The translations under genes and the position numbers were made by a program. Below are positions 19,567-37,800 of a DNA stretch of 53,371 bases, piece after piece. This DNA is from a virus (lineage: Duplodnaviria > Caudoviricetes): positions 1-53,371 of IMG/VR virus record IMGVR_UViG_3300048554_000080; one strand, written 5' to 3'. The notes under the pieces are model-generated. The model made no database searches. It was not told where the DNA came from and saw nothing but the letters and a program-made list of their open reading frames with translations. Position 1 is the stretch's first letter. Each line of letters begins with the position of its first letter.

Positions 19567-19619
19567 AATTATATTTCCTTTGTAGTTAAACGGCCGAGAC
19601 CACCCCGGCCGATTGTTTG

Positions 19620-19649
19620 AGTATAACCGATTAATCCGCCCCGAGTAAA
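19620..19649 (-). promoter_or_regulatory. Early promoter P2
   Basis: TTTACT-18 nt-TATACT; spacer shares CGGG..ATTAAT with P1. Confidence 0.65.
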
Positions 19650-20556: not shown

Positions 20557-20613
20557 AATTATATTTCCTTTGTAGTGTTTAAGGGCCGCCACCACAGCGA
20601 ACCCATAACCCCG

Positions 20614-20641
20614 ATTATATACAAGCGCCACCAGTTAGCAA
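20614..20641 (-). promoter_or_regulatory. Early promoter P3
   Basis: TTGCTA-16 nt-TATAAT upstream of the 20556 start. Confidence 0.5.
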
Positions 20642-20818: not shown

Positions 20819-21088
20819 ATGAAAAATGATAGGAAAGTATTAGATAAAAGCATACCTCCGCTAGGTTACGAAATGACAATTGAAGAAGCATGGCAGGGTA
20901 TCGCCAACTTTTACGATGCCATAGAAATAGCTGAAGCCGGGCATCGTGCCGATTTTATTCAACTAAACCATTCTAAAGTAGTCATCAAGGCAGATCGGGC
21001 GGGAGAAAATCCTGATGCGATGATAACAGTCTGCCCTGACAAGTGTCCCGAATATGGGGCACCACATTTAAAATTAGTCGAAGACTAA
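20819..21088 (+). CDS. Hypothetical protein (89 aa)
   Basis: Strong GAGGAGAGGAG RBS; TTGACG promoter-like element at 20761. Confidence 0.7.
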   Translation: MKNDRKVLDKSIPPLGYEMTIEEAWQGIANFYDAIEIAEAGHRADFIQLNHSKVVIKADRAGENPDAMITVCPDKCPEYGAPHLKLVED

Positions 21089-21106
21089 ATCTACCTTCAT
21101 CACAAT

Positions 21107-21219
21107 AAAAAAAGGCCCCGAAACGTCCAAAAAGGATATTCCGGGGCCTTTGGTGGTGCCATTTTAAGGGGGAAGTGGCACCTCGCAGTGTTAAGAGCGG
21201 GAGGAGTACTCCTAACAGT
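21107..21219 (-). ncRNA. Candidate sRNA-A with anti-SD loops (AbcR/cuckoo-like)
   Basis: Promoter TTGACC-17-TAGTCT (21252-21224); hairpin with UACUCCUCCCG loop; hairpin with UUCCCCCUUAAA loop; GC-rich terminator plus U7. Confidence 0.65.
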
Positions 21220-21267
21220 ATTAAGACTACTATAATGCCCTTAGTAGGTCAACACTTATACCCATAG

Positions 21268-21296
21268 TTGACGCGCCAGTTTTTTTTAGTTATCGT
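21268..21296 (+). promoter_or_regulatory. Integrase promoter
   Basis: TTGACG-17 nt-TATCGT; TTGACGCGCCAGT...TTTTTAGT is also present at 20761. Confidence 0.6.
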
Positions 21297-21330
21297 ATTT
21301 ACCGAACTCATAACTTTAAGGGGTATACGA

Positions 21331-22416
21331 ATGACAAAATATTTAGAAGAAAGGACAACGGCGGATGGAAAGGTGTTTTATGCCTTCAACCCATCCCGGG
21401 GAGTAAGAGACGCATTGAATCTGCGTTACCAGAAGTTCCCCAACAAGCGTGATGCTGTGAAGTATTGCCAGCAAGTGGCGCTAGAATTTAGTTTGCACCG
21501 CCGCAAGCATGAAGGCACGATCAAAGTCGATGACGATAGTGTAGAAGGCTTGATTAATTTCTATAAAACCACGCAAGAGTGGATAAAATTAGCTGATAAC
21601 AGCAAAACTTTCTACAATTTACAGCTAAGAACAGCCACAGAGATGCAATTAGACGCATCTAAACTCGCATTTGGTCAAGTAAAGGCAAAAAACATCACTG
21701 CTACACAAGCAGACAAGCTGTTTACGCTTATCCAGCGGGAATATAGCGACCATAGAGCCAGCCACGTCGTTAAAGTACTGAGGAAAGTATACAACGTAGG
21801 CTACCGACACGACAAAGTGCCCGCAAACCCGTTCAGTAATATGAAAATACCCGGCTTGGCTACTCGCAAGGTACTCTGGGAGCCCAAACAGGTGTTTAAA
21901 TTGATCGATACAGCCGACAAGATGGGGTATCCATCTATCGGTACGGTGACTTTGCTTACCTACGACCTCTGTGCAAGGCCCGGGGACATGAGACAACTAA
22001 CGTGGGCGAATTACCACGACAGTCAGTTTGCTTATGTTCAGGAAAAGACTAAAACCATAATGGGGGTAGCCGCTTCTCCTAGGCTCGTAGAGAGGTTGAA
22101 GAAGTATCATCAATACGATTCATCAGATATAGAACGTGAAGGTTGTATTGTGGTCTGTGAGACTACGGCAATGCCGTACAGCAAAGACCTACTGGTCAAA
22201 TACTTTGCCCGGATTAGGAAACAAGCGGGGCTACCCTCGCACCTACAACTACGGGATCTCCGCAGGACAGGTGCAACCGAGATGGCCGAGGCTGGTTGTA
22301 CAGAAGATGAACTGAGAGCCGTTACGGGGCACCAATCCCGTGAGATCTTGGCGACCTACGTCCGACCAACAATGAAGTTAGCAACGTCCGCAATCAACAA
22401 GAGGTTCGCATCGTGA
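21331..22416 (+). CDS. int: Tyrosine integrase (true start MTKYLE at 21331)
   Basis: CARPGD (R), QEKT (K), LRDLRRT, VTGH and TY catalytic motifs; AAGGGG RBS; attP downstream. Confidence 0.9.
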   Translation: MTKYLEERTTADGKVFYAFNPSRGVRDALNLRYQKFPNKRDAVKYCQQVALEFSLHRRKHEGTIKVDDDSVEGLINFYKTTQEWIKLADNSKTFYNLQLRTATEMQLDASKLAFGQVKAKNITATQADKLFTLIQREYSDHRASHVVKVLRKVYNVGYRHDKVPANPFSNMKIPGLATRKVLWEPKQVFKLIDTADKMGYPSIGTVTLLTYDLCARPGDMRQLTWANYHDSQFAYVQEKTKTIMGVAASPRLVERLKKYHQYDSSDIEREGCIVVCETTAMPYSKDLLVKYFARIRKQAGLPSHLQLRDLRRTGATEMAEAGCTEDELRAVTGHQSREILATYVRPTMKLATSAINKRFAS

Positions 22417-22664
22417 GGATGCAAGGGGTGCCTCATTACCCCGACCTCATAATATGTGATTTCTGCGGGAGATCTACTCGCGGAGTCATCTACCCAAACG
22501 AGCCTGATTCGGTTAAATGCACATCATGTCATATGGAATTAACTGATGTAGCAACTAGTGTAGTGGTTAACGGAGAGTGGAAAAACGACCAAAAACGATC
22601 ACTCCACTCCACTGATATAGTTACTGACGCTCTAAATCACTTAGCAAACAATGACTTAGACTAG
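22413..22664 (+). CDS. Small zinc-ribbon protein
   Basis: CDFC...CTSC; GTGA overlap with int; ends 3 nt before the attP core. Confidence 0.6.
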   Translation: MRMQGVPHYPDLIICDFCGRSTRGVIYPNEPDSVKCTSCHMELTDVATSVVVNGEWKNDQKRSLHSTDIVTDALNHLANNDLD

Positions 22665-22667
22665 ACT

Positions 22668-22708
22668 TGGTTGCGGGAGTAGGATTTGAACCTACGACCT
22701 TCAGGTTA
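22668..22708 (-). mobile_element. attP core: 3' half of tRNA-fMet(CAT)
   Basis: Minus strand TAACCTGAAGGTCGTAGGTTCAAATCCTACTCCCGCAACCA is initiator tRNA from the anticodon loop to CCA; 5' half absent; flanked by IHF-like AACAATGASTTA sites (~22648, ~22726). Confidence 0.9.
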
Positions 22709-22796
22709 GGTAGAAGTTCAATAATAACAATGAGTTAACTAGGGGTTTAATGGTTAAGCGCATAACTAATGTAATAGTTGAACTATAGTAAAACTG

Positions 22797-22825
22797 TTGA
22801 CGGATGCTAAAAACCATGTTAAAAA
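22797..22825 (+). promoter_or_regulatory. Promoter of the replication operon
   Basis: TTGACG-17 nt-TAAAAA with extended TG. Confidence 0.55.
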
Positions 22826-22879
22826 AGCGAGGCCGCTCCGGGGCCGAGCTACCCCTAATACTCGTTTTAAGGGAGACTT

Positions 22880-23695
22880 ATGTATAACCGGCAGGAACAA
22901 ATCGAGATAATAAAATCGATTAAAGTAAGCGAAGGGGAATCGAAAACAATCGACTGTCCCTTTTGTTACGGTAAAAAGAAATTCAGCATAACGAATAAAG
23001 ACGGTACCGTTCTTTGGAATTGCTACAAAGCATCATGCTCGATCAAGGGTGCGTATCGCAAAGGAATGACACTGTCCCTGATCAAGAACCGGGTTGGTGT
23101 TAAGAAAGAAACTCTCGGTGAATTTCTGGCAAGAGAGATAAACGAACGTGGACTCACACTTCGACGGATACCCGAGATCCTATCTCAACCAAAGAACCAC
23201 ACCTACGTCATGAATTATCTTGAAGAGAACGGGTGTATACCCGCCTTCGACCAAGGCTTGGTTAAAATACTGTATGCCCCGGCTGACAATCGTTGTTTGT
23301 TTATGATGAACGATGGTAAGGGTGCCGTCGGTAGAGCCCTCGGGGATAACACTCCTAAGTGGATGTCCTACGGAGATACCTCGGGTGCGTTAACTGTTGG
23401 AACCTCGGATGTGGCTGTAATTGTTGAAGATGCACCGTCTGCTTGTGCCGTTGGAGTCATTGATGGGTACGCTGGTGTCGCTATTTTAGGCACTAATTTG
23501 AGTACAAAACAGAAACAAAGTCTCAAAAACTACCGAAAGATTATTATTTGTCTTGACAATGATGCTAAAGGTAAAGCTATAAAGCTGTTAAGGCAATTGC
23601 AAGGGTTAGTAGACTGTACTGTTAAGTTCATTGCTAAAGACCTGAAGTATTGCCCAAGTGAGGAAATAACAAAGGTGTTAGAGAATGAAATGTAG
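22880..23695 (+). CDS. DNA primase (Zn finger plus TOPRIM)
   Basis: CPFC...CYKASC; IVED; AILGT; CLDNDA. Confidence 0.85.
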   Translation: MYNRQEQIEIIKSIKVSEGESKTIDCPFCYGKKKFSITNKDGTVLWNCYKASCSIKGAYRKGMTLSLIKNRVGVKKETLGEFLAREINERGLTLRRIPEILSQPKNHTYVMNYLEENGCIPAFDQGLVKILYAPADNRCLFMMNDGKGAVGRALGDNTPKWMSYGDTSGALTVGTSDVAVIVEDAPSACAVGVIDGYAGVAILGTNLSTKQKQSLKNYRKIIICLDNDAKGKAIKLLRQLQGLVDCTVKFIAKDLKYCPSEEITKVLENEM

Positions 23696-23888
23696 AGGTA
23701 TTGTTGTTATCGACTATGATTTACCCGGAGGGTATAAGCAAGCGGCTGTCGAACAAGAAGCACTCGAAAATACTATCCGTGAGTTAGTTAAGGGTAATCC
23801 GCGAGTGGTTCATTCAGAAGTCGATATTAAAGAACGTAGAGGGGATAAGACCCCAGACATTAAAAAGATGAAGTTACGATCTAGTTAA
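23685..23888 (+). CDS. Hypothetical protein (67 aa)
   Basis: Overlaps the primase stop and is followed by a terminator. Confidence 0.7.
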   Translation: MKCRGIVVIDYDLPGGYKQAAVEQEALENTIRELVKGNPRVVHSEVDIKERRGDKTPDIKKMKLRSS

Positions 23889-23910
23889 TAAATTTTATCA
23901 AACGATTTAA

Positions 23911-23941
23911 AAGGCCCTGTCGAAAGATGGGGCTTTTTTTT
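23911..23941 (+). terminator. Intrinsic terminator
   Basis: AAGGCCCTGTC-GAAA-GATGGGGCTT followed by a T-run. Confidence 0.85.
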
Positions 23942-23995
23942 GTTTTGCGTTCGTGTTACCGTGTAGCTCAACTATAACTTAACTATACGATAACT

Positions 23996-25219
23996 ATGGA
24001 CATAAGAATACTTAAATCACTATTATCATTCGACTTTTATAACGATAACAAGGCCAACTTATCCAAGAGCCTGTTCGAGGATGAGATTCAAGACGCTTAC
24101 GTCACGATCTCCCGAGCCCACGAAAAGCACCAACACGACCTTACCCCGGCTGACATCTTAGCTTTATGGAAGAACCAGAACCCGGTAGCTACCCGGGCTG
24201 ACCAAGAGGCATTCGCGGGGATCATTGACCTAATAAATACCATCGAACCACTTTCCCCGCCTGTAGTAACTGAAGTTATACAAGGGCTATGGCAACGCCA
24301 GATAGGCACCAAGATTGCCAACATGGGTATAGAGGTGGCCGACGGTAACCCAACAGGTATGGAGCGATTGCACCAGTTACTTGAGGGATCCAAAGAAGGC
24401 TTCATGCCTACAGACTTTGGTGAGAAGACAACGAAGGATATTCATGAGCTTCTAGCCGGTGTTACCGACGATAACCGCTGGGAGTTTAATATATCCACGT
24501 TATCCCGGCATGTATATGGGATAGGTGCCCGGGAGTTTGGGTGTGTGTTTGCATTACCTGAGACCGGCAAGACAGCATTCTTAGTCAGTATATGTACTGG
24601 CCCGGGCGGATTCTGCGAACAAGGCGCTAAGGTAATCTACCTCGGTAATGAGGAAGACACTGGGCGTACTATGCTCCGAGCAATACAAGCACACGCTGGT
24701 GTTACCCGGGAGCAAGTAATTGCTGACCCTATGAAAGCCCGGCGTAAGTTTAACGACATTGAAGACCTGTTCGATATGAATGAGATACAGGATTGGGACT
24801 TGGCTAAGATAGAAGCCTACGTCGAGAAAGAACAGCCTGATATACTAATTATTGATCAGGCAGATAAAGTAAACATTGGCGGTAACTTTAACGCAGGGCA
24901 TGAACGTCTGCGTGAGCTTTACCGTCGATTGCGTGAGACCGCGAAGAAATTTGACTGTGCCCTACTCGCGGTTAGCCAAGCCAGTAATGATGCCAAAGGA
25001 CGAACTCGTTTATCGGGCTTCGATATGGAAGGCAGTAAGATCGGCAAGATGGCCGAGCTAGATTTATGTATTGGTATCGGGAAGCATGAAGCCGGGGACG
25101 TTGATGACTCCGAGCCCGACACATCACGTTATCTAACCGTCAGTAAGAACAAGCTGAGTGGTTGGCATGGCACAGTAATTTGCAACATACAGCCGGAGAT
25201 CTCCCGGTATGTGGAGTAA
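23996..25219 (+). CDS. DnaB-like replicative helicase
   Basis: ALPETGKT, GNEE, IIDQAD, VSQAS, EGSKIGK.AELD and VSKNK motifs. Confidence 0.9.
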   Translation: MDIRILKSLLSFDFYNDNKANLSKSLFEDEIQDAYVTISRAHEKHQHDLTPADILALWKNQNPVATRADQEAFAGIIDLINTIEPLSPPVVTEVIQGLWQRQIGTKIANMGIEVADGNPTGMERLHQLLEGSKEGFMPTDFGEKTTKDIHELLAGVTDDNRWEFNISTLSRHVYGIGAREFGCVFALPETGKTAFLVSICTGPGGFCEQGAKVIYLGNEEDTGRTMLRAIQAHAGVTREQVIADPMKARRKFNDIEDLFDMNEIQDWDLAKIEAYVEKEQPDILIIDQADKVNIGGNFNAGHERLRELYRRLRETAKKFDCALLAVSQASNDAKGRTRLSGFDMEGSKIGKMAELDLCIGIGKHEAGDVDDSEPDTSRYLTVSKNKLSGWHGTVICNIQPEISRYVE

Positions 25220-25221
25220 AT

Positions 25222-25734
25222 ATGCTGGTGACACTATCCAAGCAGGACGCCCATAGCAGTAGGATAATGGGTGCAGATACGGTGAAGCTCTGTGAAATGC
25301 AGGGCTTTAAGCCGAGATTAGAGAACGACAATCAAAGTCGTACTGAAGCGAACATTTACGGGTTCAAGGCAGAGTTTGCTGTGGCCCGGTTATTCGATCT
25401 CGAACCCCCAACGATTAACGTGCTGTCGGACGGCGGCGTAGATCTCTGGTGTGGGGATGTATCGATTGATGTGAAGTTTACTAACACAGAGTTCGGCCCG
25501 TTGGTATTCGATCAGATACCAAAATTCAGGGCGCAGATCGCTGTGTTGGTTGGGAGAACCGATGATCCAAAGGTAATGCGGATTAACGGATGGGTAGATC
25601 GTAGGACGTTCAAGCAGGAATGTAGCCCCGCAAATTTCGGATATGGCGACAGACTTAAGATGGAACACGACCAGTTGTTCCCGATTGAAAGCCTATGGAA
25701 ACAATTAATGGAAACTAAATTTAAAGGGGAATAA
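25222..25734 (+). CDS. PD-(D/E)XK nuclease-like protein (start MLVTLS at 25222)
   Basis: GFKAEFAVA...DGGVDL...IDVK; GGAG RBS. Confidence 0.7.
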   Translation: MLVTLSKQDAHSSRIMGADTVKLCEMQGFKPRLENDNQSRTEANIYGFKAEFAVARLFDLEPPTINVLSDGGVDLWCGDVSIDVKFTNTEFGPLVFDQIPKFRAQIAVLVGRTDDPKVMRINGWVDRRTFKQECSPANFGYGDRLKMEHDQLFPIESLWKQLMETKFKGE

Positions 25735-25735
25735 T

Positions 25736-27862
25736 GTGAGTGTAACAATAGTATTGGACTTAGAGACAACGGTTCAATTTGGTGAGGACAAAAGTAAGGA
25801 CAACAGCCCGTATCATCCAAAGAATAAAATAGTCTCATCCCATTGGCGGATGATTGAAGATGGAGAGGTAGGCCCAGCACGAAGGGCGATCTTTAACCAC
25901 AACGAACAGAATGGCCTAGACGCCGATAGCAGTGCGCCCATGAAGGAAGACCTTAGTCGGGCCGGGTTAATTGTATGCCATAATGCTAAATTCGACGTGT
26001 CCTACTTATTAGAGTCAGGTTTCAGTATACCAAAAAAGGTGTACGACACGATGATAGGCGAGTACATCTTCGCACGAGGACAACGTCAAGAGCTATCTCT
26101 CAAAGCTACAGCCGAGCGCAGGGATGTAACTCGAAAGAAATCAGATTTAGTTGATGGCCTGTTTAAATCCGGGGTGGGCTTTGAAGCAATGCCTCTGGAT
26201 ACAGTAATCGAATATGCTGATGCGGACGTGCTATCTACAACTGAGATCTATCTAGCCCAGCAAAAAGATCTGCTAAAAGAGTCGAACGTCGGCTTACTCC
26301 CAACCTTCACTCTAATGAATGAGATGTTGCTCTTCTTGGTAGAACTAGAACGTAACGGTATCGCCATAAATACGGATACTCTGGCCGAAGTAAAGGAACA
26401 GTACGAGGCTGAAAAGGTACAGATAGAAAAGGATCTAGATGCTATCGTTGTCGATGTGATGGGGGATACACCTATCAACCTGAACAGTGGTGTCGATATG
26501 ACCGCCGTGGTTTATTCGCGTACAGTCAAAGATAGAAACTACCACAAGAATGCTTTTAACATTGGGGTAAACGCCCGGGGCAAACCACTGCCACCCCCAC
26601 GGATGAATGCTAGTAAATTTGCTAACACCGTCCGCAAGTCTACACGCCGGGTCATGAAGACCATAGCCAACCACTGTGACGTTTGCGAGGGCAAGGGCAA
26701 ACTACAGAAGATGAAGGTCAACGGTGAGCCCTATAAGAACCTATCTAAGTGTACGCATTGTGATGGGCGTGGGTACACATTGACAGAGACAGGCCAAGTG
26801 GCCGGGTTAAAACTTATTCCTACACAGCCTACTGACGCCAGTATAAATGGTTTTAAAACAGACAAGCTAACGATCAAGAAATTGATTGCCCAAGCGGAAG
26901 CCAAGGACAACTTAAAAGCCATAGAGTTCCTGACAAAGACATCTAGGCTGAATGCTATATCCACATACCTAGACTCGTTTATTAAGAACATCCAAGCGTC
27001 TACCCGGGCCGACGGAATACTACATGCTCAGTTTAACCAATGTATAACTCGCACAGGCAGACTTAGCAGTTCTAACCCTAACTTCCAGAACATACCCAAT
27101 GGCTCAAAGTTTCCCGTACGGAAAAGCGTACACTCAAGGTTCGAGGGTGGCACGATTATGGAAGCCGACTTCTCTGGGTTAGAATTTAGAGTAGCCGGGG
27201 AACTTTCCCAGTGCCCTACTGTCATCGGCCAGATACTAGATGGTTTTGACGTACACAAACAGACCGCCGCTATTATCAACCAGTGTCCACTAGAGGACGT
27301 TGATAAGACTATGAGGCAAGCGGCCAAAGCGTACACGTTCGCGCCGTTGTATGGTGGTATGGGTGCTAATGAGCCACCTCATATCCAAGCCTACTTTAAA
27401 GAGTACTTTAACATCTACAAAGGCCTCGCCCAGTGGCACCGTAAGCTAATGGACGGTGTACTCAAGGATGGCATTGTAAGGATACCTAGCGGCCGCGAGT
27501 TTTACTTTCCTAACGCTCGGAGGCTCGGAAACGGCAGGATAACTAATGCTACTGCTGTAGTTAATTACCCCTGCCAATCGTTTGCTACTGCCGACCTAGT
27601 GGTCATGTCATGCGTCCGGGCGCACCAGCGTTTCATAGCAGAGGGCTTCAAATCAAGACTGATCTTGACGGTTCATGATTCAATCGTTGTGGACGTACAC
27701 CCGGATGAGGATGCGCCGGTCATAGAAGCCCTGAAGTGGGCTATGGGTGGGTTAGCTGAAGAGGTCAAGGAGCGGTACGACTACGACCTAACACTTCCCC
27801 TAGACATCGAAATTACACAGGGCCCAAATTGGATGGAACAAATTGAATTGGATATTGACTAG
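25736..27862 (+). CDS. polA: Family A DNA polymerase with 3'-5' exonuclease and DnaJ zinc-finger insertion
   Basis: LDLET, HNAKFD, YADAD exo motifs; TGRLSS, ADFSGLEFR, AKAYTFAPLYG (Phe at the 762-equivalent), TVHDS; CDVCEGKG...CTHCDGRG insert. Confidence 0.95.
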   Translation: MSVTIVLDLETTVQFGEDKSKDNSPYHPKNKIVSSHWRMIEDGEVGPARRAIFNHNEQNGLDADSSAPMKEDLSRAGLIVCHNAKFDVSYLLESGFSIPKKVYDTMIGEYIFARGQRQELSLKATAERRDVTRKKSDLVDGLFKSGVGFEAMPLDTVIEYADADVLSTTEIYLAQQKDLLKESNVGLLPTFTLMNEMLLFLVELERNGIAINTDTLAEVKEQYEAEKVQIEKDLDAIVVDVMGDTPINLNSGVDMTAVVYSRTVKDRNYHKNAFNIGVNARGKPLPPPRMNASKFANTVRKSTRRVMKTIANHCDVCEGKGKLQKMKVNGEPYKNLSKCTHCDGRGYTLTETGQVAGLKLIPTQPTDASINGFKTDKLTIKKLIAQAEAKDNLKAIEFLTKTSRLNAISTYLDSFIKNIQASTRADGILHAQFNQCITRTGRLSSSNPNFQNIPNGSKFPVRKSVHSRFEGGTIMEADFSGLEFRVAGELSQCPTVIGQILDGFDVHKQTAAIINQCPLEDVDKTMRQAAKAYTFAPLYGGMGANEPPHIQAYFKEYFNIYKGLAQWHRKLMDGVLKDGIVRIPSGREFYFPNARRLGNGRITNATAVVNYPCQSFATADLVVMSCVRAHQRFIAEGFKSRLILTVHDSIVVDVHPDEDAPVIEALKWAMGGLAEEVKERYDYDLTLPLDIEITQGPNWMEQIELDID

Positions 27863-27883
27863 TTACACTAACTGAGGTACATT
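27855..27883 (+). promoter_or_regulatory. Sigma70-like promoter for the SSB operon
   Basis: TTGACT-17 nt-TACATT. Confidence 0.55.
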
Positions 27884-27931
27884 ATAATACCTTAACTAAA
27901 AACCTTATAAAGGTACTTATTGGAGACATAT

Positions 27932-28786
27932 ATGAATGAACTTACTACAATCAGCAAAAGTGAACAGTTGGAAATTGCCGCCGCTATGGGTATGGGTGGT
28001 AATGATACTCCTACTTCTGGTGACAGGCTCCCTGAACTGAAAATTAACTACCAAGAAGAGAACGACCAAGGTCAGACTCTGCCCCGTGGTCAGTTTTATG
28101 TGAAGGGTACCGAAGATGACCCTGTTTTTGCTAAGTCAGTAAACTTTCGTCCGTTATCTCAGCTATTCCAGTGGATTCAGTACGACGCCGAGGAGAACAA
28201 GGTCAAAAACAAAACCTTGATGATACCGATGCTAAGGCTCGAAGCCCGGGATGAAAAAGGCACAACACGTTGTGGTAAACCCGCAAGCAAAGTATTGCGT
28301 GAAATGTCTAAAGAGGATCAGAAGCGGTACAGCGATATCAAGTGCTTCCGCCAAGTCCGTGGACTGGTGTCCTACGAAGGCAAGAACGCGGACGGCGAGA
28401 CCGTATCAATTGAAAATCAACCCGTCATCATGATGTTGAAGGGTAGTAACTTTAATCCGTTTGAGGAAGAGTTTTTAGACAAACTACCTCGCGGCCGTAA
28501 GATGCACGAGTACACCGTCAAGATCGGCGCTACCAAAACAAAAGGTAGTGGCGGCAATATCTGGTGGGTACTTAACTTTGACCCTGATTTGACGAACACC
28601 CTAGCGATGGACGAACAGGTTTTTGAAACCGTAAAGGTTATGCATGACATGGTGAAGCGTGAAAACGACAAGATCCAAGCCTCGCATGAGAGAAGCCTGA
28701 GAGACAGTCAGCTATCGGATGATGCTATCGATGCCATTGAAGGCATATCTAGTGACTTGGAAGATGATTTAGCAGACGAAGCGTAA
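27932..28786 (+). CDS. Probable ssDNA-binding protein (start MNELTT at 27932)
   Basis: Position after PolA, acidic C-terminal tail, GGAG RBS; function inferred. Confidence 0.6.
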   Translation: MNELTTISKSEQLEIAAAMGMGGNDTPTSGDRLPELKINYQEENDQGQTLPRGQFYVKGTEDDPVFAKSVNFRPLSQLFQWIQYDAEENKVKNKTLMIPMLRLEARDEKGTTRCGKPASKVLREMSKEDQKRYSDIKCFRQVRGLVSYEGKNADGETVSIENQPVIMMLKGSNFNPFEEEFLDKLPRGRKMHEYTVKIGATKTKGSGGNIWWVLNFDPDLTNTLAMDEQVFETVKVMHDMVKRENDKIQASHERSLRDSQLSDDAIDAIEGISSDLEDDLADEA

Positions 28787-28815
28787 TCGTACCTTAACCC
28801 TAAAAGAGGTACGTT

Positions 28816-29676
28816 ATGTCTCTAAACATACTCGAACACCAACTACATATGGTACTGGACAAGCTCTCCAACGGGGAGCCTGTTGAGTATGAAGAGAGTT
28901 GGATTGAAGAAGCAGGAGAGATGTTTAAAGACACTCTTCGCAAGCAACTAGAGCCTCGGGAAGATGGGTTCCGCATCCGCATGTCGAATGTGGGACGCCC
29001 CTCTTGCCAACTACAGCACGAAAAAGCTGGCACCCCCAAATCTAAGAACCCCTACAATAACATTGTCCGATTTATGTTGGGCGATGCTACCGAAGTATTG
29101 GTTGAGTTATATCTTAAACTAGCCCGGGTAAATATTACCGGGGGTAAGGATAAGGTACAGCTAGATGTAGGTGAGACTACCATCCTTGGCGAGAATGATG
29201 TCGAGATCGATGATAAGATCTATGACACAAAGTCCTCAAGCCCGTGGGCCTATGACAACAAATGGGCGATGGGCTGGGAAGGTGTGGCTAAGGATGATGC
29301 GTTTGGCTATGTTCCCCAGTTACTAGGCTACAGTGATGCTTCCAACAAAGAACCCGGCGGATGGCTTGTAGTCAATAAGTCCACTGGCGAAATCAAGGTG
29401 GTGGACGCTGAGTTTACTGATGCAGATAAACGTGCAATCAGGAATAAGATCGCGTCTAATGTGGAATTGATCACAACAGATGCGCCTTTCGAGAAATGCT
29501 TTGAACCACAAGATGAGTATTTCCGTAAGCAACTAACCCCCAATAAAAGACTACCGATTAACTGCACCTTCTGTAACTACCTTCATGCCTGTTGGCCGGA
29601 CGCTAAGTACCGACCACAGACCGGTAGCAAGGCTCAGAGTCCCCGTCATTATTGGTACGCGGAGTACGAAGAATAG
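28816..29676 (+). CDS. PD-(D/E)XK exonuclease (Cas4/RecB-like)
   Basis: RMSNVGRPSCQL, GENDV...YDTKS, GYVPQL..Y, CTFCNY...CW. Confidence 0.85.
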   Translation: MSLNILEHQLHMVLDKLSNGEPVEYEESWIEEAGEMFKDTLRKQLEPREDGFRIRMSNVGRPSCQLQHEKAGTPKSKNPYNNIVRFMLGDATEVLVELYLKLARVNITGGKDKVQLDVGETTILGENDVEIDDKIYDTKSSSPWAYDNKWAMGWEGVAKDDAFGYVPQLLGYSDASNKEPGGWLVVNKSTGEIKVVDAEFTDADKRAIRNKIASNVELITTDAPFEKCFEPQDEYFRKQLTPNKRLPINCTFCNYLHACWPDAKYRPQTGSKAQSPRHYWYAEYEE

Positions 29677-30128
29677 TGCCATTCAGAAATATAAGAGGCC
29701 GAGCAATCGCTAACGGCTACCGTTCCGGGCTGGAAGAAGACATTGGCCTACAACTTAAAGAAGCTGGCATAAAAGCAGAGTACGAACCTTTTCGCATTCC
29801 GTACATAATGCCTATCCAGAACCGAAAATATACACCCGATTATGTATTGCCGAACGGCATCGTAATCGAAAGTAAAGGTAGGTTCACTCCTGAAGATCGA
29901 AAGAAGCACCTGTGGATCCGTGATGATTACGGAGACGCACTTGATCTACGGTTTGTGTTCAGTAACCCACGCGGAAAACTACGCAAAGGTAGCAAGACTA
30001 GCTACGCCGATTGGTGTGAGAAACATGGGTTCTTGTTTGCGTCGAAGGAAATCCCGGACGAATGGCTGAAAGAGAAGCCTAAAAAGCGTTCATTAAATTT
30101 ACTAAACAAACTTCGAGAAACAAAATGA
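29676..30128 (+). CDS. T7 endonuclease I-like Holliday junction resolvase
   Basis: YRSGLEE, YTPDYVL, IESKGRF, LRFVF, YADWCEKHGF; GTG start overlapping the upstream stop is inferred. Confidence 0.9.
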   Translation: MPFRNIRGRAIANGYRSGLEEDIGLQLKEAGIKAEYEPFRIPYIMPIQNRKYTPDYVLPNGIVIESKGRFTPEDRKKHLWIRDDYGDALDLRFVFSNPRGKLRKGSKTSYADWCEKHGFLFASKEIPDEWLKEKPKKRSLNLLNKLRETK

Positions 30129-30469
30129 CGGATAAGTTTATTGGAGCATTTATAGAACTCGTCCCGAACGAAACGAATGAAGGAATAGACTTTCGCTTTG
30201 GGTGGGAATTCCCTGACAAAATGGAACCAGAAGTACAGGAACTGTTTAAGAACCTAGTAGCTGGTATCTTTGGATTGATGAGTAGTCAGGACGAAGAGAT
30301 TATTGCTATCGGTGAGATAGTCCGTAATGTATCCGGCTTCGATGACAGCATAGTACCGGTAGCCGATAATGAAATCATATTTACGGCCGACGATGAACTA
30401 CTCGAAAAGCTAGAGTCCTCATCAAAAGTAATCGACATAACGAAATATAAACCGCAAGGCGACCAATGA
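30125..30469 (+). CDS. Hypothetical acidic protein
   Basis: 114 aa, translationally coupled. Confidence 0.7.
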   Translation: MTDKFIGAFIELVPNETNEGIDFRFGWEFPDKMEPEVQELFKNLVAGIFGLMSSQDEEIIAIGEIVRNVSGFDDSIVPVADNEIIFTADDELLEKLESSSKVIDITKYKPQGDQ

Positions 30470-31026
30470 TGAGCGATCTATTTATTGGCCTATGTGGAAA
30501 GAAAGGCTCCGGGAAGAGCTATGTAGCAAAGAACATGAGGGATACTCGTGGGGCGAAGATTATTCGCTTTGCCGATACCCTCAAAGACATGATGCGTGTG
30601 ATGGGCTTTAACGAAGGCCAAATCAACGGCGATCTTAAAGAAGTAGCCTGTGACATGCTGAATGGTAAGACCCCAAGATACGCCATGCAAACACTCGGAA
30701 CTGAGTGGGGGCGTAACTTACTGCACGAGAATATCTGGGTAGATATGCTTGTTGCCAAGGCGAACAAAGAGACCGGAATTGTGGTCGTTGACGATGTTCG
30801 TTTTCCAAATGAAATACAAGCAATCCGTGAGAATGGCGGAGTGGTAGCGTGGGTGGAACGAATTTCCGTCTACGAAGGTGAAGATGAACACGCCTCCGAA
30901 ACCTCGGTTAGTTCAGCGGACTGTGATGTCTGGATTGATAATACCCTACCTATCTCTGAAGTGATCACCAACGTGGAAGGTTGGGCCCGGTTGCAGAAAG
31001 ATATTAGGAATAAAAATGACAAATAA
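30466..31026 (+). CDS. Deoxynucleoside monophosphate kinase
   Basis: GLCGKKGSGKS, FADTLK, PRYAMQTLGTEWGR, DDVRFPNE and HASE motifs. Confidence 0.9.
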   Translation: MMSDLFIGLCGKKGSGKSYVAKNMRDTRGAKIIRFADTLKDMMRVMGFNEGQINGDLKEVACDMLNGKTPRYAMQTLGTEWGRNLLHENIWVDMLVAKANKETGIVVVDDVRFPNEIQAIRENGGVVAWVERISVYEGEDEHASETSVSSADCDVWIDNTLPISEVITNVEGWARLQKDIRNKNDK

Positions 31027-32794
31027 AGTTAATATTGACTTAGAAAGAGATGGTAAATTTGATGACCTCGGCCTCACACGACTCCGCGAAAGCTACATGC
31101 GGGAAGACGAAAGTAGCCCCCAAGAAAGGTTCGCCTACGTCTGCGAACAATTTGGATCTGACCAAGAACACTCCCAGCGCCTCTATGAATACACCAGTAA
31201 GCACTGGCTGTCGCTGTCCACGCCAATCCTCAGCTACGGCAGGAGCAAAAGGGGTATGCCCATCAGTTGCTTCTTGTCGTACCTCGACGATAGCGCCGAA
31301 GGATTAGTAGATACTCTATCCGAAGTAAACTGGCTATCGATGCTCGGGGGCGGTGTGGGTATCCATGTAGGTATCCGTGGCTCCGACGATAAATCAGTTG
31401 GGGTAATGCCTCACTTGAAAGTTTACGATGCCTCCTCCCTCGCCTACCGTCAGGGACGTACCCGGCGCGGTAGTTACGCGGCTTTCTTAGATATTAGTCA
31501 CCCAGACATTACAGCATTTGTAGAGATGCGTAAGCCTACCGGTGATCAGAACTTCCGTACTCTTAATTTACATCACGGCGTTAACATAACTAACGACTTT
31601 ATGAACCTTATTGAGCAGTCGATGCGCGATGAGGACTTCGATGACTCATGGGATTTAATCAGCCCGAATAATGGTGAAGTGGTTGAGACCGTTTCAGCTA
31701 AAGCTCTTTGGATTAAGCTATTAGAAATGCGTATCCAGACCGGGGAGCCCTACCTTGTATTTATTGACAATGCTAATGACGATTTGCCTGTCTGGTTAAA
31801 AGACCAAGGCATGAAGATTAATGGCAGTAACCTGTGTACAGAGATCTTTCTACCTACGACAATGGATCGTACTGCGGTCTGCTGTTTATCCAGCCTAAAT
31901 ATCGAATATTACGAAGAATGGAAGTCAGATCGTAAGTTTATCCCGGATGTTATGGAGATGTTGGACAATGTGCTGGATCATTTCATAGCACAGGCTCCAA
32001 AAACCGTCTCTAGGGCCATTAAATCGGCGCGTAACGAACGATCTATAGGTATTGGTACCCTTGGTCTACATGCGTACTTTCAGAAGCGTGACATGCCTCT
32101 AGAGGGCGTCATGACGAAGGTGATTAACCGTGAGATCTACAAACACATCGAGAAAGAATGTAAGCGCGGCGATAAACAGTTATTTGATAGGCGTGGGCCC
32201 TGCCCGGATGCTAAAAAAGCTGGGATAGAACGTAGATTTAGCCACTGGACTGCTATCGCCCCCAACGCCTCTAGCTCTATTATCATGGGCAACACCAGCC
32301 CGAGTATTGAACCTTACCGAGCTAACGTATTTCGCCAAGACACAATGTCCGGCGCGTATATACAAAGGAACAAGTACCTTGAAACTAAGCTCGAAGAATT
32401 CGGTCTAAACACACAGAAGACGTGGGCCAGTATCACAGCGCAGGATGGTTCAGTCCAGCACCTAGATATCCCCCAAGACGTAAAAGACGTATTTAAAACA
32501 GCCAATGAGATTGACCAGCTTTGGCTGATAGATCTTGCCTCTGACCGCCAAGAATATACGGATCAGGGACAGAGTCTAAACTTATTTTTCCGCCCGGATG
32601 TAAATGTGAAGTATCTTCACGCCACTCATTTCTTAGCATGGAAGAACGGTCTAAAAAGCCTGTACTACTGCCGTTCTGACAAGCTCCGTAAAGCTGATCG
32701 CGTCGGTATGCAGATTCAACGTAACAGAATTGAAGATGAGATTGACCTGACAGCGGTTGCTGATGGGGATGTCTGTCTCGCATGTGAGGGATGA
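31016..32794 (+). CDS. nrdA: Class I ribonucleotide reductase alpha subunit (short, no ATP cone)
   Basis: SCFL, GGGVG, SNLCTEI, AIAPNASSS, DQGQSLN, KSLYY and C-terminal CLACEG. Confidence 0.95.
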   Translation: MTNKVNIDLERDGKFDDLGLTRLRESYMREDESSPQERFAYVCEQFGSDQEHSQRLYEYTSKHWLSLSTPILSYGRSKRGMPISCFLSYLDDSAEGLVDTLSEVNWLSMLGGGVGIHVGIRGSDDKSVGVMPHLKVYDASSLAYRQGRTRRGSYAAFLDISHPDITAFVEMRKPTGDQNFRTLNLHHGVNITNDFMNLIEQSMRDEDFDDSWDLISPNNGEVVETVSAKALWIKLLEMRIQTGEPYLVFIDNANDDLPVWLKDQGMKINGSNLCTEIFLPTTMDRTAVCCLSSLNIEYYEEWKSDRKFIPDVMEMLDNVLDHFIAQAPKTVSRAIKSARNERSIGIGTLGLHAYFQKRDMPLEGVMTKVINREIYKHIEKECKRGDKQLFDRRGPCPDAKKAGIERRFSHWTAIAPNASSSIIMGNTSPSIEPYRANVFRQDTMSGAYIQRNKYLETKLEEFGLNTQKTWASITAQDGSVQHLDIPQDVKDVFKTANEIDQLWLIDLASDRQEYTDQGQSLNLFFRPDVNVKYLHATHFLAWKNGLKSLYYCRSDKLRKADRVGMQIQRNRIEDEIDLTAVADGDVCLACEG

Positions 32795-33771
32795 TTATGC
32801 CAAAAAGAAAGCCGAAGTTAACGGACACACGAGATTACTATAAGCCTTTTAACTACCCTTGGGCTTATGATGCGTTTCAGGCCAGCGAACAAATGCACTG
32901 GTTGTGGACTGAAGTACCTATGCTGGAAGACACCAAGGATTGGCGTCACCGGCTGAACGATGGAGAGAAGGACTTCCTAACGAAGATCTTCCGATTCTTT
33001 ACTCAGGGCGACATAGATGTGTCCGGCGCGTATGTGAACAACTACCTACCGCACTTCCCACAGCCTGAAGTAAGAATGATGTTATCGTCGTTTGCCGCCC
33101 GGGAAGCTATTCATGTGGCCGCATATAGCCACCTGATCGAAACCTTGGGTATGCCTGAGTCAACGTACAACGAGTTCCTTGAATACGAAGAGATGGTAGA
33201 GAAGCACGACTTCTTCCAAGAGCTACAGAAGGACGAGAACCTACCGGCTCAGATTGCCGGGTTCAGTGCATTCACCGAAGGTATGCAATTGTTTAGCTCG
33301 TTCGTCATGTTACTTAATTTTGCCCGGAATGGTAAGATGAAGGGTATGGGTCAGATCATCGCGTGGTCTATTGCAGACGAAACCCTACACACTGAAAGCA
33401 TGATCAAGCTGTTCCGAACATATGTTCAAGAGAACCGTAACCTATGGAACGATGATACCAAGAAGCTGATATACACCACCGCCGAGAAGATGGTGGAATT
33501 AGAAGATAAGTTTATCGGACTAGCGTTCGGCGTTAACCAGATGGAAGGCATCACCCCAATAGAGGTGAAACAATATATTCGATACATTTGTGACAGACGT
33601 TTAATCGCGCTGGGTATGAAAGGGATCTTCAAAGTGAAGACTAACCCACTGCCTTGGGTTGATGGGATGCTTGGCGTCACACACACGAACTTCTTTGAAA
33701 ACAAGGTTGTTGACTACGCAAAAGGGGCACTTTCCGGCGATTGGGCCGAGGTATGGGGAGCGGTATCATAG
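32791..33771 (+). CDS. nrdB: Class I ribonucleotide reductase beta subunit
   Basis: FFTQGD, EAIHVAAY, EGMQLFSSF, DETLH and NFFE motifs. Confidence 0.95.
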   Translation: MIMPKRKPKLTDTRDYYKPFNYPWAYDAFQASEQMHWLWTEVPMLEDTKDWRHRLNDGEKDFLTKIFRFFTQGDIDVSGAYVNNYLPHFPQPEVRMMLSSFAAREAIHVAAYSHLIETLGMPESTYNEFLEYEEMVEKHDFFQELQKDENLPAQIAGFSAFTEGMQLFSSFVMLLNFARNGKMKGMGQIIAWSIADETLHTESMIKLFRTYVQENRNLWNDDTKKLIYTTAEKMVELEDKFIGLAFGVNQMEGITPIEVKQYIRYICDRRLIALGMKGIFKVKTNPLPWVDGMLGVTHTNFFENKVVDYAKGALSGDWAEVWGAVS

Positions 33772-33783
33772 GAGTTTTGACCT

Positions 33784-33969
33784 ATGTCGCAACAGAAACG
33801 ACAGGCCAAAAAAAAGCCACTACAAGTGGCATTCGATATGGGCCAGAAGGCCTTCTACCGGGGTATCTTTGATAGCCCGTATAAAGAGAGTTCATTCCTA
33901 CACAAGGAGTGGAAACGCGGATTTGACACTGGGTTCTTCCAAAATCAAACTCGCTTAATGAAACAGTAG
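33784..33969 (+). CDS. Small hypothetical protein
   Basis: GQKAF...SPY...EWKRGF motif; AGGAG RBS. Confidence 0.7.
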   Translation: MSQQKRQAKKKPLQVAFDMGQKAFYRGIFDSPYKESSFLHKEWKRGFDTGFFQNQTRLMKQ

Positions 33970-33981
33970 TGCCCCTAACTG

Positions 33982-34010
33982 TTTACTTAACTACAGTATT
34001 GTAGTATGAT
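33982..34010 (+). promoter_or_regulatory. Sigma70-like promoter with internal inverted repeat
   Basis: TTTACT-17 nt-TATGAT; ACTACA-GTAT-TGTAGT palindrome overlapping the spacer. Confidence 0.55.
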
Positions 34011-34033
34011 CAACGGATAGAATTGGAGTCTGT

Positions 34034-34336
34034 ATGAGTTTAGATACTCTGAATAATCAAGTCCTCGAATGGGGATTGGAGAAAGGTATATTACCTAACC
34101 CCGAACCACTTTCTCAGGTAGAAAAAACTGAGGAAGAAGTAGCTGAGTTACGACAAGCTATTTATGAACACAACATTGACGAAGTCAAAGATGCCATCGG
34201 CGATATTTATGTGACGATCACTATGCAAGCCGAAGCATGGAACCTCACAATGGAAGAGTGTGTTAAAGCCGCATACGACGTAATTAAACTCCGCACCGGT
34301 AAAATGGTGAACGGGCAATTTGTAAAAGATAATTAG
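34034..34336 (+). CDS. MazG-like nucleotide pyrophosphohydrolase
   Basis: KTEEEVAEL...KDAIGD...AYDVIKLRTGKMVNGQFVK. Confidence 0.85.
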   Translation: MSLDTLNNQVLEWGLEKGILPNPEPLSQVEKTEEEVAELRQAIYEHNIDEVKDAIGDIYVTITMQAEAWNLTMEECVKAAYDVIKLRTGKMVNGQFVKDN

Positions 34337-34344
34337 GAGCATTT

Positions 34345-34641
34345 ATGACGAAGAAATTTGAAGAGACGCCGGAAGAATCCGCGTCAGTTAACCAAGAGGC
34401 CATGTCCACCGATGAATTATTGGATTCTCTCAAAGGGAAGTTTGATAGTTGTATCGTCACAGGTTTCAACAAGGACGGTCATCTTTTCATGTCTAGTTCC
34501 ATTAGTAATATCCCGTTCATGCACTGGACACTTAACCGTTCAATCTTTGAATTAGGATTGTTCGAGAAGCAAGCGTCACAGCCCCAAACGGAAGAAGCCC
34601 CAGCAACAACCGAAGTTGACACTGAGGCTTCTGAATCGTAA
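34345..34641 (+). CDS. Hypothetical protein (98 aa)
   Basis: AGGAG RBS; IVTGFNKDG motif. Confidence 0.7.
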   Translation: MTKKFEETPEESASVNQEAMSTDELLDSLKGKFDSCIVTGFNKDGHLFMSSSISNIPFMHWTLNRSIFELGLFEKQASQPQTEEAPATTEVDTEASES

Positions 34642-34650
34642 TACCCTCTC

Positions 34651-34720
34651 ATAGTCCTTTTGTAGTGGACTTTTGCCCTCATCTCCGTCTAACCAACGGG
34701 CCAAAGGTGGGGGCTTTTTT
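34651..34720 (+). ncRNA. Candidate sRNA-B, antisense to the early-gene RBS
   Basis: Promoter TTGACA-17-TAATAC (34616-34644); hairpin AGUCC-UUUUGUAGU-GGACU; terminator GCCCUCAUCU...AGGUGGGGGC-U6. Confidence 0.6.
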
Positions 34721-34724
34721 ATGT

Positions 34725-34801
34725 GCGCTTGTAGCTCAGTTGGATAGAGCGTCCGGCTACGAACCGGAAGGTCGGGAGTTCGAGTCTTCCCAAGTGCGCC
34801 A
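34725..34801 (+). tRNA. tRNA-Arg(ACG)
   Basis: Full cloverleaf: GCGCTTG/CAAGTGC acceptor, GCTC/GAGC D-stem, TCCGG-CTACGAA-CCGGA anticodon arm, GTTCGA T-loop, encoded CCA. Confidence 0.92.
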
Positions 34802-34802
34802 G

Positions 34803-37800
34803 CTATTTAGTAGTAGCGCCTTCAATTAGAGCTTCTTTTGTTTGTTGGACGGTATCCCTGCCCTCTCTCAACATACGTTCTGTATCTATGAGAAGTTCTA
34901 GCATTTCTGCGTCACTAGGCTCGTTGTCTTCGTTGTAGATTCCTACACGGAGAGCATACGTCTTTAATATCTCAGCCGCCGCCGTAGACACCTTACCGTC
35001 TTGTTCCGTTACTCTACGGGCTACTTCTAAGAAAGCATCCGGGTCAGCAAACATAACGTCAGTTACCCGGGCGACACCGTTTTTGTTAACCGCGTTGGTG
35101 ATCAATCCTGTACCAGCGGCCCTTACTCGTGCGCCTAGTCTGCTAAGAACACCAAGTGTTAATGTCACAGATTTATCAAGTGCCTGTTTAGCACCGGCTT
35201 GTAACATATTAGCGTAAGTATCAGATCCCGCGCCGATAGACTTAGCACCTTTAGCCCGAGTAATTATCCCGGTCTCATTAAGCAATGTCTTTAGGCCATT
35301 CATAAGTGCGGGTTTGTCACCAAATACTGCTTCGCCGTAAAGCAAAACATTATCTAGCTCATCACGAACAGCGGTATCTACCCCTGTCTTGAGCATTCTG
35401 TTTCCGCCTAACTCTTGTGTAGCGGCTAGGAATTTCTTTCTAAAGTGACGTGCGTATGCGGCTTGCATACCTTCTAGTAGTACCGGGTTACCGGACTCAC
35501 GGGCTGTCTTAATTAAATCCGCCAGTGGGCCTTCAAACTCTTCTGTACCGGGTACCTTTCGCATTGACTGAGGATCATTCAAGATCTTCTCAAATGCCTT
35601 AAACCCATTAATCTTAGCTTTACCATTAGGCTGGAAGAACGCGGCCAACTCGTCGTTGTAAATTCTTTCTTTAGCGGCAGTAGCGGCGTCTGTTGCCGAC
35701 TTGATCTGAGCTTCTAACTGTTCTTTGGTAAGGCTAGAATTTCGTAAGTTATCTAATAGATCATCAATACGTTTTGCTTGGTCAGGGAAGTTCTCTCGAA
35801 CCAAGGTTCCGTAGTTTGATAGAGACTCAATAATGTCTGCTGTATCAATATCTGGGATCTTAGTAGTGCCGCCAATACGGGTGGATAGTTTGCCCATGAT
35901 GTCGCCGATAATATAGTCGGTTACCACCCCGGCGTTACCATCCGTATCTAATAGCTTGATAATCTGTGAGCCTGACTCTCGGTTAGTATCACTCAGTGCG
36001 CTTACGACCTGTTGTCGTGCTTCTTGAGCAAACTTAGGCCCTTGTATTTCTACGCCTTCTTTAGCCATGTCTTTACTAGTTCTGCCGACAGTCTGAGCGT
36101 GGATGTTACCTACTTCCTCAAGTGCTAGTCCATCTCTCCAGTAAGGGGCATAGTTATTTGTGTAGTATTCCTTAGCGGCTACTGCGGCGTCAGCTACTTC
36201 TTCATCACCGAACTCGATAAGATCATCTACGGCCTTCGTATCGATATACGATACAAACTCTCGTAGTACTCGCCCGGCCGCGTTGTTTCCTTGTGCAAAC
36301 ATATCAGAAGCATTTTGTGCTACGGCTGGTCGGATCTCTCTGTATAGTGTCTGGAAGTCTAAGCCTTCGTTATCTATGAATCTCAACATTCTGCTACGCA
36401 TTTCGTCCGGCGTTTCTTTAACAGGGTTTCCATCAACCATCTTAGTAGTCAAAGCAACTTCGTCTAATAGACGCCCGAATATACTGTTAGGTTTTAGTTG
36501 TTCTTTAGCCGCACTAATCTGGCCGGGCTGTAGATCTACTAATACATCGATCAGTCCGTCCGGGTTAATCTCTCCACCTTTAATAGCTGTGTAGAGGCTG
36601 TTCTTTTGATCGGTCATCGTTTCATACGCACGACGTAGATTTGTCACGATACTGTCAGCGGCTTGGTTACGCCCTGCATAAATATCAAACTGTACGATAT
36701 TCTCTATCTGCTTAATCTTTTCTCCGAACGTAGGATCTTCTCGTAGTAGGGTACCGACTTGGTTATTAACCTCGTCTAGTTGTGTCTGTAGATTAGTTAC
36801 TACGCCTTCAGCATCATCAATAACCTTTTGTCCCGCACTAGCAAACCCGTCGCTAGACATATTGATGGCGTCTGTACCGCCTAATACCTCTTCAGTCTGG
36901 TTAGTGACGTTTTCTAATTCTCGGCCCGGAGTACTTACCTTTTCTATTAGTTCAGGTGAGCCACGTCCTTGTTGTACTTGTTTCTTCATCAGGCCTTGCG
37001 CTGTTGTATACAGCTTTCGCGCCGCTTCAGTATCGTCGTTTTCGAGGGCTCTCATGATTGCTGACATAGTGTCAGTGGTGTACTGGATATCTCCACCCAT
37101 CTCTTCTGGGATGTTGATAAATACTTCTTTGTTCTCTTCGACCAGCTTGAGAATGCGTTCCCTAGCTTCTTTGTCCTTAACCGGGTCGCCTGTAACTCCC
37201 GCAAATTCATCAAGAATGTCTCTTACAACCATATCCTGCGCGGTGTTAGGATTAACAGCTTTAAATATCTGCCCAAGGGTCATAGACCATGAGAATGCGG
37301 CGGCCGCTGTTATGCCTCTTACGGCACTTTCCGCTGGCCCCATTATAGCTATGGCGTCTGCTAGGATGTTAAATCGTTTGTCTAGTACTTGTTGATACTC
37401 AGGATCCTCGGGGTTTATTTCCATACCCGCCATGAAAGGCATAGCTTCTGTCCAAGCACCCCCAGTGACATCATCAATTAATGAATTATCGCCGACTGCT
37501 AATGTCTGGACATCCGAACTCATGGTACTTGCGGCACCAATTTCAAAACCGAGCATTCGGGCTAATCCACCAACATACTTAGTCTGGGCTAGTTTAGGTA
37601 GCCATGAGATAGCTTTTACGCCAAGACCACCACCGGTTAAGATACCAGCGCCTTCAGTGATAAGCGTGTCACCCAAACTATCGTCTGTGTTTATATCGGA
37701 TACGTTATCTTGGACGTATTCTACTGCGCCAATATCACGCCCACCAAAAACACCCGCTTCCGGGTTTTCAGTGTAGTATTGATCTAGTTCTGTTGGGCTC

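Follow-up and report, generated by a model that had tools for sequence, protein, structure and literature searches.

Antisense RNAs of phages and the present locus

In phages P1 and P7, the c4 RNA represses translation of icd with polarity on ant. It is encoded ahead of its targets within their own operon, and its target specificity is not the same in the two phages. RNase P reportedly cuts c4 out of the operon transcript (Hartmann and colleagues, 1995). The CI RNA of the satellite phage P4, which has an N15-type relative, is itself the immunity factor of an integrase-bearing temperate phage and pairs with short sequences that are repeated in the leader of the early operon; it is processed from the leader of the operon that it controls and acts by premature transcription termination and not by a block of the Shine-Dalgarno (SD) sequence. 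The sar RNA of P22 and the OOP RNA of lambda are short phage antisense RNAs with a promoter and a terminator of their own. Both are cis-encoded opposite their target and perfectly complementary to it, and sar covers the ribosome-binding site (RBS) of ant.

Here, we analyzed a 53,371-bp, complete-looking virus record (the window, by which we mean the whole of this stretch of DNA) in which positions 34651-34720 probably encode a trans-acting antisense RNA of about 65 to 70 nt that regulates early leftward genes, as judged from the sequences of the window and its relatives. The initial annotation of this DNA had likened the element to the P1 c4 and P4 CI RNAs, a comparison that holds for the mechanism and fails for the family and for the genomic arrangement. 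No Rfam family matched the element; the C4 antisense RNA family of P1/P7 (RF01695) had no hit at the gathering threshold anywhere in the window, and P4 CI gave no Rfam match either. When 34600-34730 was searched with E values up to 10, the best matches were unrelated and far below their thresholds, and C4 was not among them.

Like c4, which is described as a trans-acting RNA that represses Ant synthesis (PMC8546580), the element would be a small phage RNA that pairs in trans with phage translation-initiation regions, the pairing being computed here. In its arrangement, the window RNA is unlike c4 as it has a proposed promoter and a terminator of its own and lies 14 kb away from its targets, on the opposite strand, and these targets belong to 2 to 4 separate transcription units. 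The clade-specific RNA/leader pairs described below resemble the specificity differences between P1 and P7, and read-through transcripts would carry an RNase P site from the tRNA gene that begins 4 nt downstream. The likeness to P4 CI lies in the 2 to 4 complementary leader sites per genome and in the presence of an integrase (21268-22416). Like sar and OOP, the element would be a short phage antisense RNA with a terminator and, as proposed, a promoter of its own; unlike them, it is encoded elsewhere, is partly complementary, and has several targets. An own promoter, a seed hairpin, a terminator with a U tail, and several SD targets also characterize the trans-encoded SD-masking sRNAs of bacteria, from which the proposed window RNA differs in being phage-encoded and in having the phage's own genes as targets. 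In its way of working, the element is like c4 and CI, and it stands outside both families.

Among marine viruses, the HMO-2011-type phages are described as a dominant group with one of the widest distributions (PMC9038755). In its DNA polymerase, the window phage shares 60% identity with Roseobacter phage CRP-3 and 39% with Puniceispirillum phage HMO-2011, so the HMO-2011-type label that the window had been given is right. Our literature search returned no report of a small RNA in HMO-2011-type phages and no mention of the element itself, and the two genome papers on CRP phages do not mention sRNA, antisense, promoter, terminator, or noncoding elements in their main text. The regulation of these phages is essentially unannotated, and a conserved regulatory RNA with readable targets would be the first handle on the timing or silencing of their early genes. 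It would also extend the known phage RNA regulators beyond the enterobacterial models and supply a natural series of co-evolved RNA/target pairs. The antisense idea is directly testable, since CRP-212, CRP-3, and CRP-235 are cultured on Roseobacter RCA strains.

A proposed promoter, a hairpin, and a terminator lie at the end of the replication operon

The genes of the window form a leftward block on the minus strand (20631 to 1), a rightward block on the plus strand (20819 to 34641) that holds the integrase, primase, helicase, DNA polymerase, ribonucleotide reductase, and MazG genes as well as ORF98, and a second leftward block on the minus strand (53371 to 34803). The candidate sRNA element sits at the end of the rightward block, which is the replication operon. 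The last gene of this operon, ORF98 (34345-34641, plus strand; phrog_11040, function unknown), carries the proposed promoter in its 3' end.

The layout that the initial annotation had described, with a -35 hexamer, a 17-nt spacer, a second hexamer, a hairpin, and a terminator ending in U6, is present in full. The -35 hexamer of the proposed sRNA promoter (34616-34621, plus strand) matches the consensus at 6/6 positions and is located inside the last ORF98 codons, while the weak -10 hexamer (34639-34644, plus strand), 17 nt past the -35, matches at 3/6 positions and does not have the final T; the ORF98 stop codon makes up its first half. With a -10 match of 3/6, a -35 match of 6/6, and a 17-nt spacer, the promoter was not called by the consensus scanner in the window. 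Alphaproteobacterial -10 elements often end in C. Hairpin 1 (34653-34671, plus strand) consists of a 5-bp stem, formed by 34653-34657 with 34667-34671, and a 9-nt loop, and its 5' arm and loop are complementary to the early leaders.

The terminator (34675-34720, plus strand) comprises a hairpin at 34675-34714, with a 9-bp outer stem, an inner 4-bp stem, and a nearly invariant 7-nt loop, followed by U6. The 3' end of the element is thus a GC-rich stem and a U run on the plus strand, that is, an intrinsic (Rho-independent) terminator, and the consensus scanner missed it because the loop exceeds the scanner's 8-nt limit. Two G·U pairs in the terminator stem fit the plus strand, which bears out the strand that had been proposed. 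The RNA 34651-34720 folds at -25.2 kcal/mol (z -2.38), and 6 of 200 shuffled sequences fold as well. We rejected a minus-strand ORF (34479-34682) that runs through the hairpin: it is antisense to ORF98, its SD-to-ATG distance is 2 nt, and its inner ATG is lost in one close relative.

Parts of the phage were found in nine public RNA runs, in all of them as contigs. In the four runs mapped on 33000-36500, no RNA-run contig covered 34639-34713, with one RNA contig stopping at 34638 and a second one starting at 34714, and a run that is probably DNA spans the region; contigs cannot show the starts, ends, or levels of transcripts.

The element is conserved as one unit with covarying stems

To describe the element in relatives, we collected the loci of ORF98 homologues, 28 in viral contigs and 61 in metagenomes. 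Two of the 28 viral loci end at the ORF, 20 have a two-hairpin element past the stop codon, and six, which form the most distant clade with an ORF98 of about 35% identity, have a plain terminator only. For the metagenome loci, 50 of the 61 were read, with 11 dropped (cut at the ORF or belonging to the distant clade), and these gave 42 distinct downstream sequences. The full layout of a -35, 17 nt, a hexamer starting with TA, 5 to 9 nt, hairpin 1, and the terminator is common to 34 distinct variants.

The promoter is the part of the unit that overlaps coding sequence. Its first five -35 bases are found in 20/20 of the distinct viral-contig variants listed. Of the 42 distinct metagenome variants, 38 have this pentamer within the final 36 nt of the ORF and one has it further on; the remaining three, one of which is truncated, lack it. 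The Val-Asp codons that carry the -35 are not replaced by a synonymous codon in any listed variant. Exactly 17 nt past the -35, a hexamer starting with TA was observed in 34/34 variants, 10 of them one base off the consensus and 2 perfect, and hairpin 1 begins 5 to 9 nt past this -10 hexamer, which is where the transcript would start. In CRP-235, the same promoter, including the -35 pentamer, is located beyond the ORF98 stop codon, and protein coding therefore cannot explain its conservation there.

A further stretch in the middle of the promoter spacer also drew our attention. At 34625-34629, five bases are invariant in the 33 aligned variants, including the four-fold degenerate position of an alanine codon, and a near-identical spacer stretch is kept in CRP-235, in which the promoter is noncoding. 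These bases may be a regulator site within the sRNA promoter.

Covariation of the stems was counted in a model-based alignment of 32 sequences. In the outer terminator helix, 100% of the cells are paired and 4 of 9 pairs change on both sides; several of its pairs are U·G, which would be mismatched on the other strand, so only the plus strand fits. The inner terminator helix is paired in 96% of the cells, with both-sided change at 3 of 4 pairs, and helix 1, which is out of register in the covariance-model alignment, is 77.7% paired there with both-sided change at 3/3 pairs. Over all helices, 10 of 16 pairs change on both sides, and the observed covariation score was reached in 0 of 500 shuffles. 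Because the MAFFT and covariance-model alignments left helix 1 out of register, it was recounted by a script that is anchored on the invariant last four loop bases and chooses the best register. By this count, 4 stem pairs of hairpin 1 are kept in 33/33 variants, through about 12 different stems and against 0.35 expected under shuffles, with the choice of the best register letting 35% of the shuffled controls also reach 4 pairs. Such compensatory changes in the stems are those of a conserved secondary structure, as in a structured RNA gene.

The inner terminator hairpin (34685-34699 in the window), with its 7-nt loop nearly invariant in the phage group, was also seen in 19 viral contigs of unrelated context (e.g., L153, L157, L170, L172, L173, and L181). 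About six of these hold it as a stand-alone terminator-like hairpin before a T run, and eight others are near-identical copies that stand before an A-rich stretch. It may be a favored terminator loop or a site for a host factor.

Hairpin 1 is complementary to the SD regions of three leftward genes in the window

The initial annotation had placed three sites matching the hairpin in the SD regions of minus-strand genes, and we find each of them directly before an ATG. Site A (18125-18139, minus strand) is the SD region of a 73-aa gene (17894-18115; ATG at 18115), site B (19576-19586, minus strand) that of the 311-aa DUF932 gene (18631-19566; ATG at 19566), and site C (20566-20577, minus strand) that of a 260-aa gene (19774-20556, phrog_2554; ATG at 20556). 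The match of the 15-mer 34655-34669 to site A at 14/15 positions and the matches of sites B and C to the hairpin with a one-base bulge are as had been noted. For the 15-mer, site A is the only other site of the window within 2 mismatches, where 0.08 are expected and 2 sites were obtained in 0 of 100 shuffles. A 14/15 match is not rare in a 53-kb genome, in which about 100 such pairs are estimated genome-wide, and the weight therefore rests on the place of the match and on the relatives.

Each target site lies downstream of a promoter called by the scanner (10/12, 9/12, and 9/12 matches) and of a GC-rich hairpin. On the minus strand, promoter and 5' leader hairpin occupy 20583-20641 before site C (promoter 20641-20614, 10/12; hairpin 20583-20604), 19592-19649 before site B (hairpin 19592-19610), and 18141-18200 before site A (hairpin 18141-18160). 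The GC-rich leader hairpins share five loop bases and are kept in the relatives G001, G005, and G015; they could stabilize the 5' end or bind a protein. A second, kissing contact between the loop of the leader hairpin and the inner terminator loop was considered and rejected, as there are 4 complementary bases only.

When the duplexes with hairpin 1 were ranked among the 58 translation starts of the window, a crude set, site A (-20.5 kcal/mol) was first, site C (-15.6 kcal/mol) third, and site B (-14.5 kcal/mol) fifth. Among 21,338 windows on both strands, site A was fourth, and sites B and C were outside the top 12 genome-wide. With shuffled hairpins and the leaders of the window, 1 of 2000 reached the best energy and 0 of 2000 reached the mean. 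The initial annotation had expected the three early RBSs to rank top against shuffled controls; with ranks of 1, 3, and 5, the signal in the window is weaker than in CRP-212, described below. Random sites of the window reach -18 to -22 kcal/mol, and longer exact complements of the hairpin exist elsewhere, for example 11 nt at 38455. In the window alone, the complementarity is only moderately beyond chance. Part of the seed lies in the stem of hairpin 1 itself, which must open before pairing.

Two minor matches were noted in the course of these scans. In G005 (16179) and G015 (5115), on the plus strand, a 10-nt exact complement of the hairpin coincides with the beginning of the DnaB-like helicase gene of the rightward operon or falls shortly within it (the 23996 region of the window); the two genomes place it differently with respect to the ATG, and it is probably due to chance. 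An exact 17-mer scan of the hairpin gave 9 viral-contig matches, 4 of them in unrelated contexts, as chance predicts.

Hairpin and leaders change together among relatives

The element and the early leaders are both readable in seven genomes, which are related by descent: the window, G001, G005, G015, CRP-212, CRP-3, and CRP-235. In G002, G007-G014, G020, and G021, the element is present but the contig does not reach the early region; G014 breaks off in the intergenic region shortly before leader 1. The 55-kb genome G016 was set aside as outside the phage group, having only the DUF932 gene in common.

In 7/7 genomes, the hairpin-1 region is complementary to the SD region of 2 to 4 leftward genes. 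G001 (49 kb, 84% identical), which has the same hairpin as the window, contains two leaders whose exact complements, of 13 and 11 nt, exceed all others in the contig. In G005, where the loop, the 5' arm, and the SD are all different, leader 1 ranks first of 11,600 windows, as it does of 12,736 windows in G015, which has a third combination. The cultured phages have a design of their own. In CRP-212, a hairpin with a different conserved loop, together with the stretch that follows it, pairs with four leaders over both SD and start codon, and these leaders take ranks 1 to 4 of 21,886 windows. CRP-3 and CRP-235 share the CRP-212 design with their own sequences: three leaders of CRP-3 contain a near-continuous complement of about 22 nt, and two leaders of CRP-235 pair at -31.5 and -28.6 kcal/mol, compared with -13 to -20 kcal/mol for 10 other starts.

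Comparison of the genomes revealed that the three SD flavors are matched by three complementary 5' arms, and that a single inserted base distinguishes the loops of the window clade and G015, as it does their leaders. When six RNA types were each scored against seven leader sets, 5 of the 6 RNAs paired best with the leaders of their own clade; the exception is the G015 hairpin, for which its own leaders (-16.5) come second to those of G005 (-18.7). Covariation of the loop and the RBS motif in related genomes had been put forward as a check of the antisense idea, and both are seen to change together in three uncultured clades and in three cultured phages. The loop and the leaders, about 14 kb apart, covary between clades. 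Part of the hairpin/leader match in CRP-212 and CRP-3 needs G·U pairs, and RNA-RNA pairing is therefore favored over a shared DNA site.

In CRP-212 (L196, 1432-1470) and in the metagenome loci L129-L136, three adjoining segments allow either of two hairpins but not both at once: one shows a conserved 8-nt loop and the other the SD-pairing stretch. This arrangement could be a switch.

Proposed mode of action and other explanations

The central proposal, that of a small RNA gene antisense to the RBSs of early leftward genes, is supported by the covariation and by the conservation of the element as a unit. We propose that the host RNA polymerase would transcribe the RNA from its own promoter in the last ORF98 codons, with the transcript starting at about 34651-34653 and ending at the intrinsic terminator. 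First contact would be made between the conserved 3' part of the hairpin-1 loop and a short conserved stretch of the leader, from where pairing would extend along the loop and, as the stem opens, into the anti-Shine-Dalgarno sequence of the 5' arm. The duplex would then cover the SD, and in CRP-type relatives the start codon as well, so that ribosome binding would be blocked. With the first genes untranslated, transcription or stability of the downstream sequence may also drop.

Two parts of the original idea do not stand. The sRNA does not explain the near-identity of the translation-initiation regions, because this identity runs from the SD through the start codon, past the paired stretch, and because close relatives with the same hairpin have initiation regions that are not identical. 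Silencing of the "whole early island" is also too wide a description, as the site is found in only 2 to 4 promoter-proximal genes per genome.

The same antisense pairing might take place without a separate gene if hairpin 1 were the 3' end of the rightward operon mRNA, perhaps processed out of it. Repression of the early leaders would in that case have to await transcription of the rightward operon, a reading that is compatible with the sRNA-gene model. It would fit the location of the element between the last stop codon and the operon terminator, the weak -10 hexamer in the clade of the window, and an RNA-run contig over 34197-34638 (contigs cannot show transcripts). However, a plain 3' end has no use for a -35 pentamer that is invariant against synonymous change, for a fixed 17-nt spacing, for a near-consensus or perfect -10 in 12 of the 34 variants, for a distance of constantly 5 to 9 nt from the -10 to the base of the hairpin, or for a promoter past the stop codon as in CRP-235, and we regard this origin of the RNA as unlikely. 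It is quite improbable that the RNA pairs with the leaders without a translation block, either guiding cleavage by RNase III or RNase E or serving as a decoy that is titrated by the early mRNAs. The near-continuous CRP duplexes are about 20 bp long, a size that double-strand-specific nucleases can cut, but the SD is paired in every case, joined in the CRP type by the start codon, as a translation block predicts.

Other explanations dispense with RNA pairing altogether. If the shared motif were a double-stranded DNA operator for a phage DNA-binding protein, present at the early leaders and in one further, inverted copy past ORF98, its copies would co-change with the specificity of the protein; all copies indeed read alike on the minus strand, and the motif is just downstream of promoters everywhere. 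Against this, the copy after ORF98 is a hairpin with a covarying stem while the leader copies are not self-complementary, the leader/hairpin differences of CRP-212 and CRP-3 still pair as G·U, and the match tracks the SD and the start codon and is not set at a constant spacing from the promoter. Among the small ORFs tested, none was recognized as repressor-like, which is a weak negative. Because of the hairpin and the G·U pairs, we consider a DNA operator very unlikely. The complementarity might also be due to chance or be a by-product, with hairpin 1 and the terminator forming a compound 3' end that stabilizes the mRNA or aids maturation of the tRNA, whose gene is directly downstream; weak pairing with any SD would then be a property of every anti-SD-like pyrimidine run. 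The energies of random sites in the window (-18 to -22 kcal/mol) and the composition of the 5' arm, which is anti-SD-like, would be expected in this case. The leaders are nevertheless top-ranked in G005, G015, and CRP-212 and hold the longest exact complements in G001, the matrix of own against other leaders is largely diagonal, shuffled hairpins did as well in only 1/2000 and 0/2000 cases, and the element persists where the tRNA is absent. The ranks of the leaders and the covariation make an origin by chance very unlikely.

A possible role in lysogeny

Returning to the antisense RNA as the preferred reading, it may shut off the early genes during infection or may silence the leftward lytic genes in a lysogen. 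The second gene of the rightward operon encodes a tyrosine integrase (21268-22416, plus strand; Pfam Phage_integrase 9.9e-16; phrog_1 3.4e-33), and the window phage is probably temperate. CRP-3 is reported to be integrated into a host tRNA gene (PMC6918029). Since the window encodes an integrase and CRP-3 integrates in a tRNA gene, a role in lysogeny or immunity is possible besides early shut-off.

More tentatively, the RNA could be the immunity repressor of widespread temperate marine podoviruses that have no protein repressor, silencing their leftward lytic genes, although we consider this less likely than not. Immunity would then come from a block that stops translation of the leading genes in every leftward unit and has polar effects on those behind them. 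If this were true, the clade-specific RNA/leader pairs would be immunity specificities, phages in which both have co-changed would be heteroimmune, and the covariation would be the trace of diversifying selection to evade superinfection exclusion.

The tRNA-Arg(ACG) gene that adjoins the element (34725-34801, plus strand) was unmentioned in the initial annotation. It starts 4 nt past the U run and is a neighbor and not a required part of the element: a tRNA gene follows the element in many relatives and is absent in others, such as L026, L027, L032, and G015. The gene is complete in the window and might hold an attachment site. In the relative L010/L005, an insertion of about 300 nt lies between the tRNA-Arg gene and the end of a 1185-aa gene.

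The two ends of the window, at about 100-150 and at 53330-53371, have the same sequence context, and the matches at 129 and 53351 share their flanks. A short overlap thus seems to be present at the termini of the record, as expected of a genome that is circularly permuted or terminally redundant.
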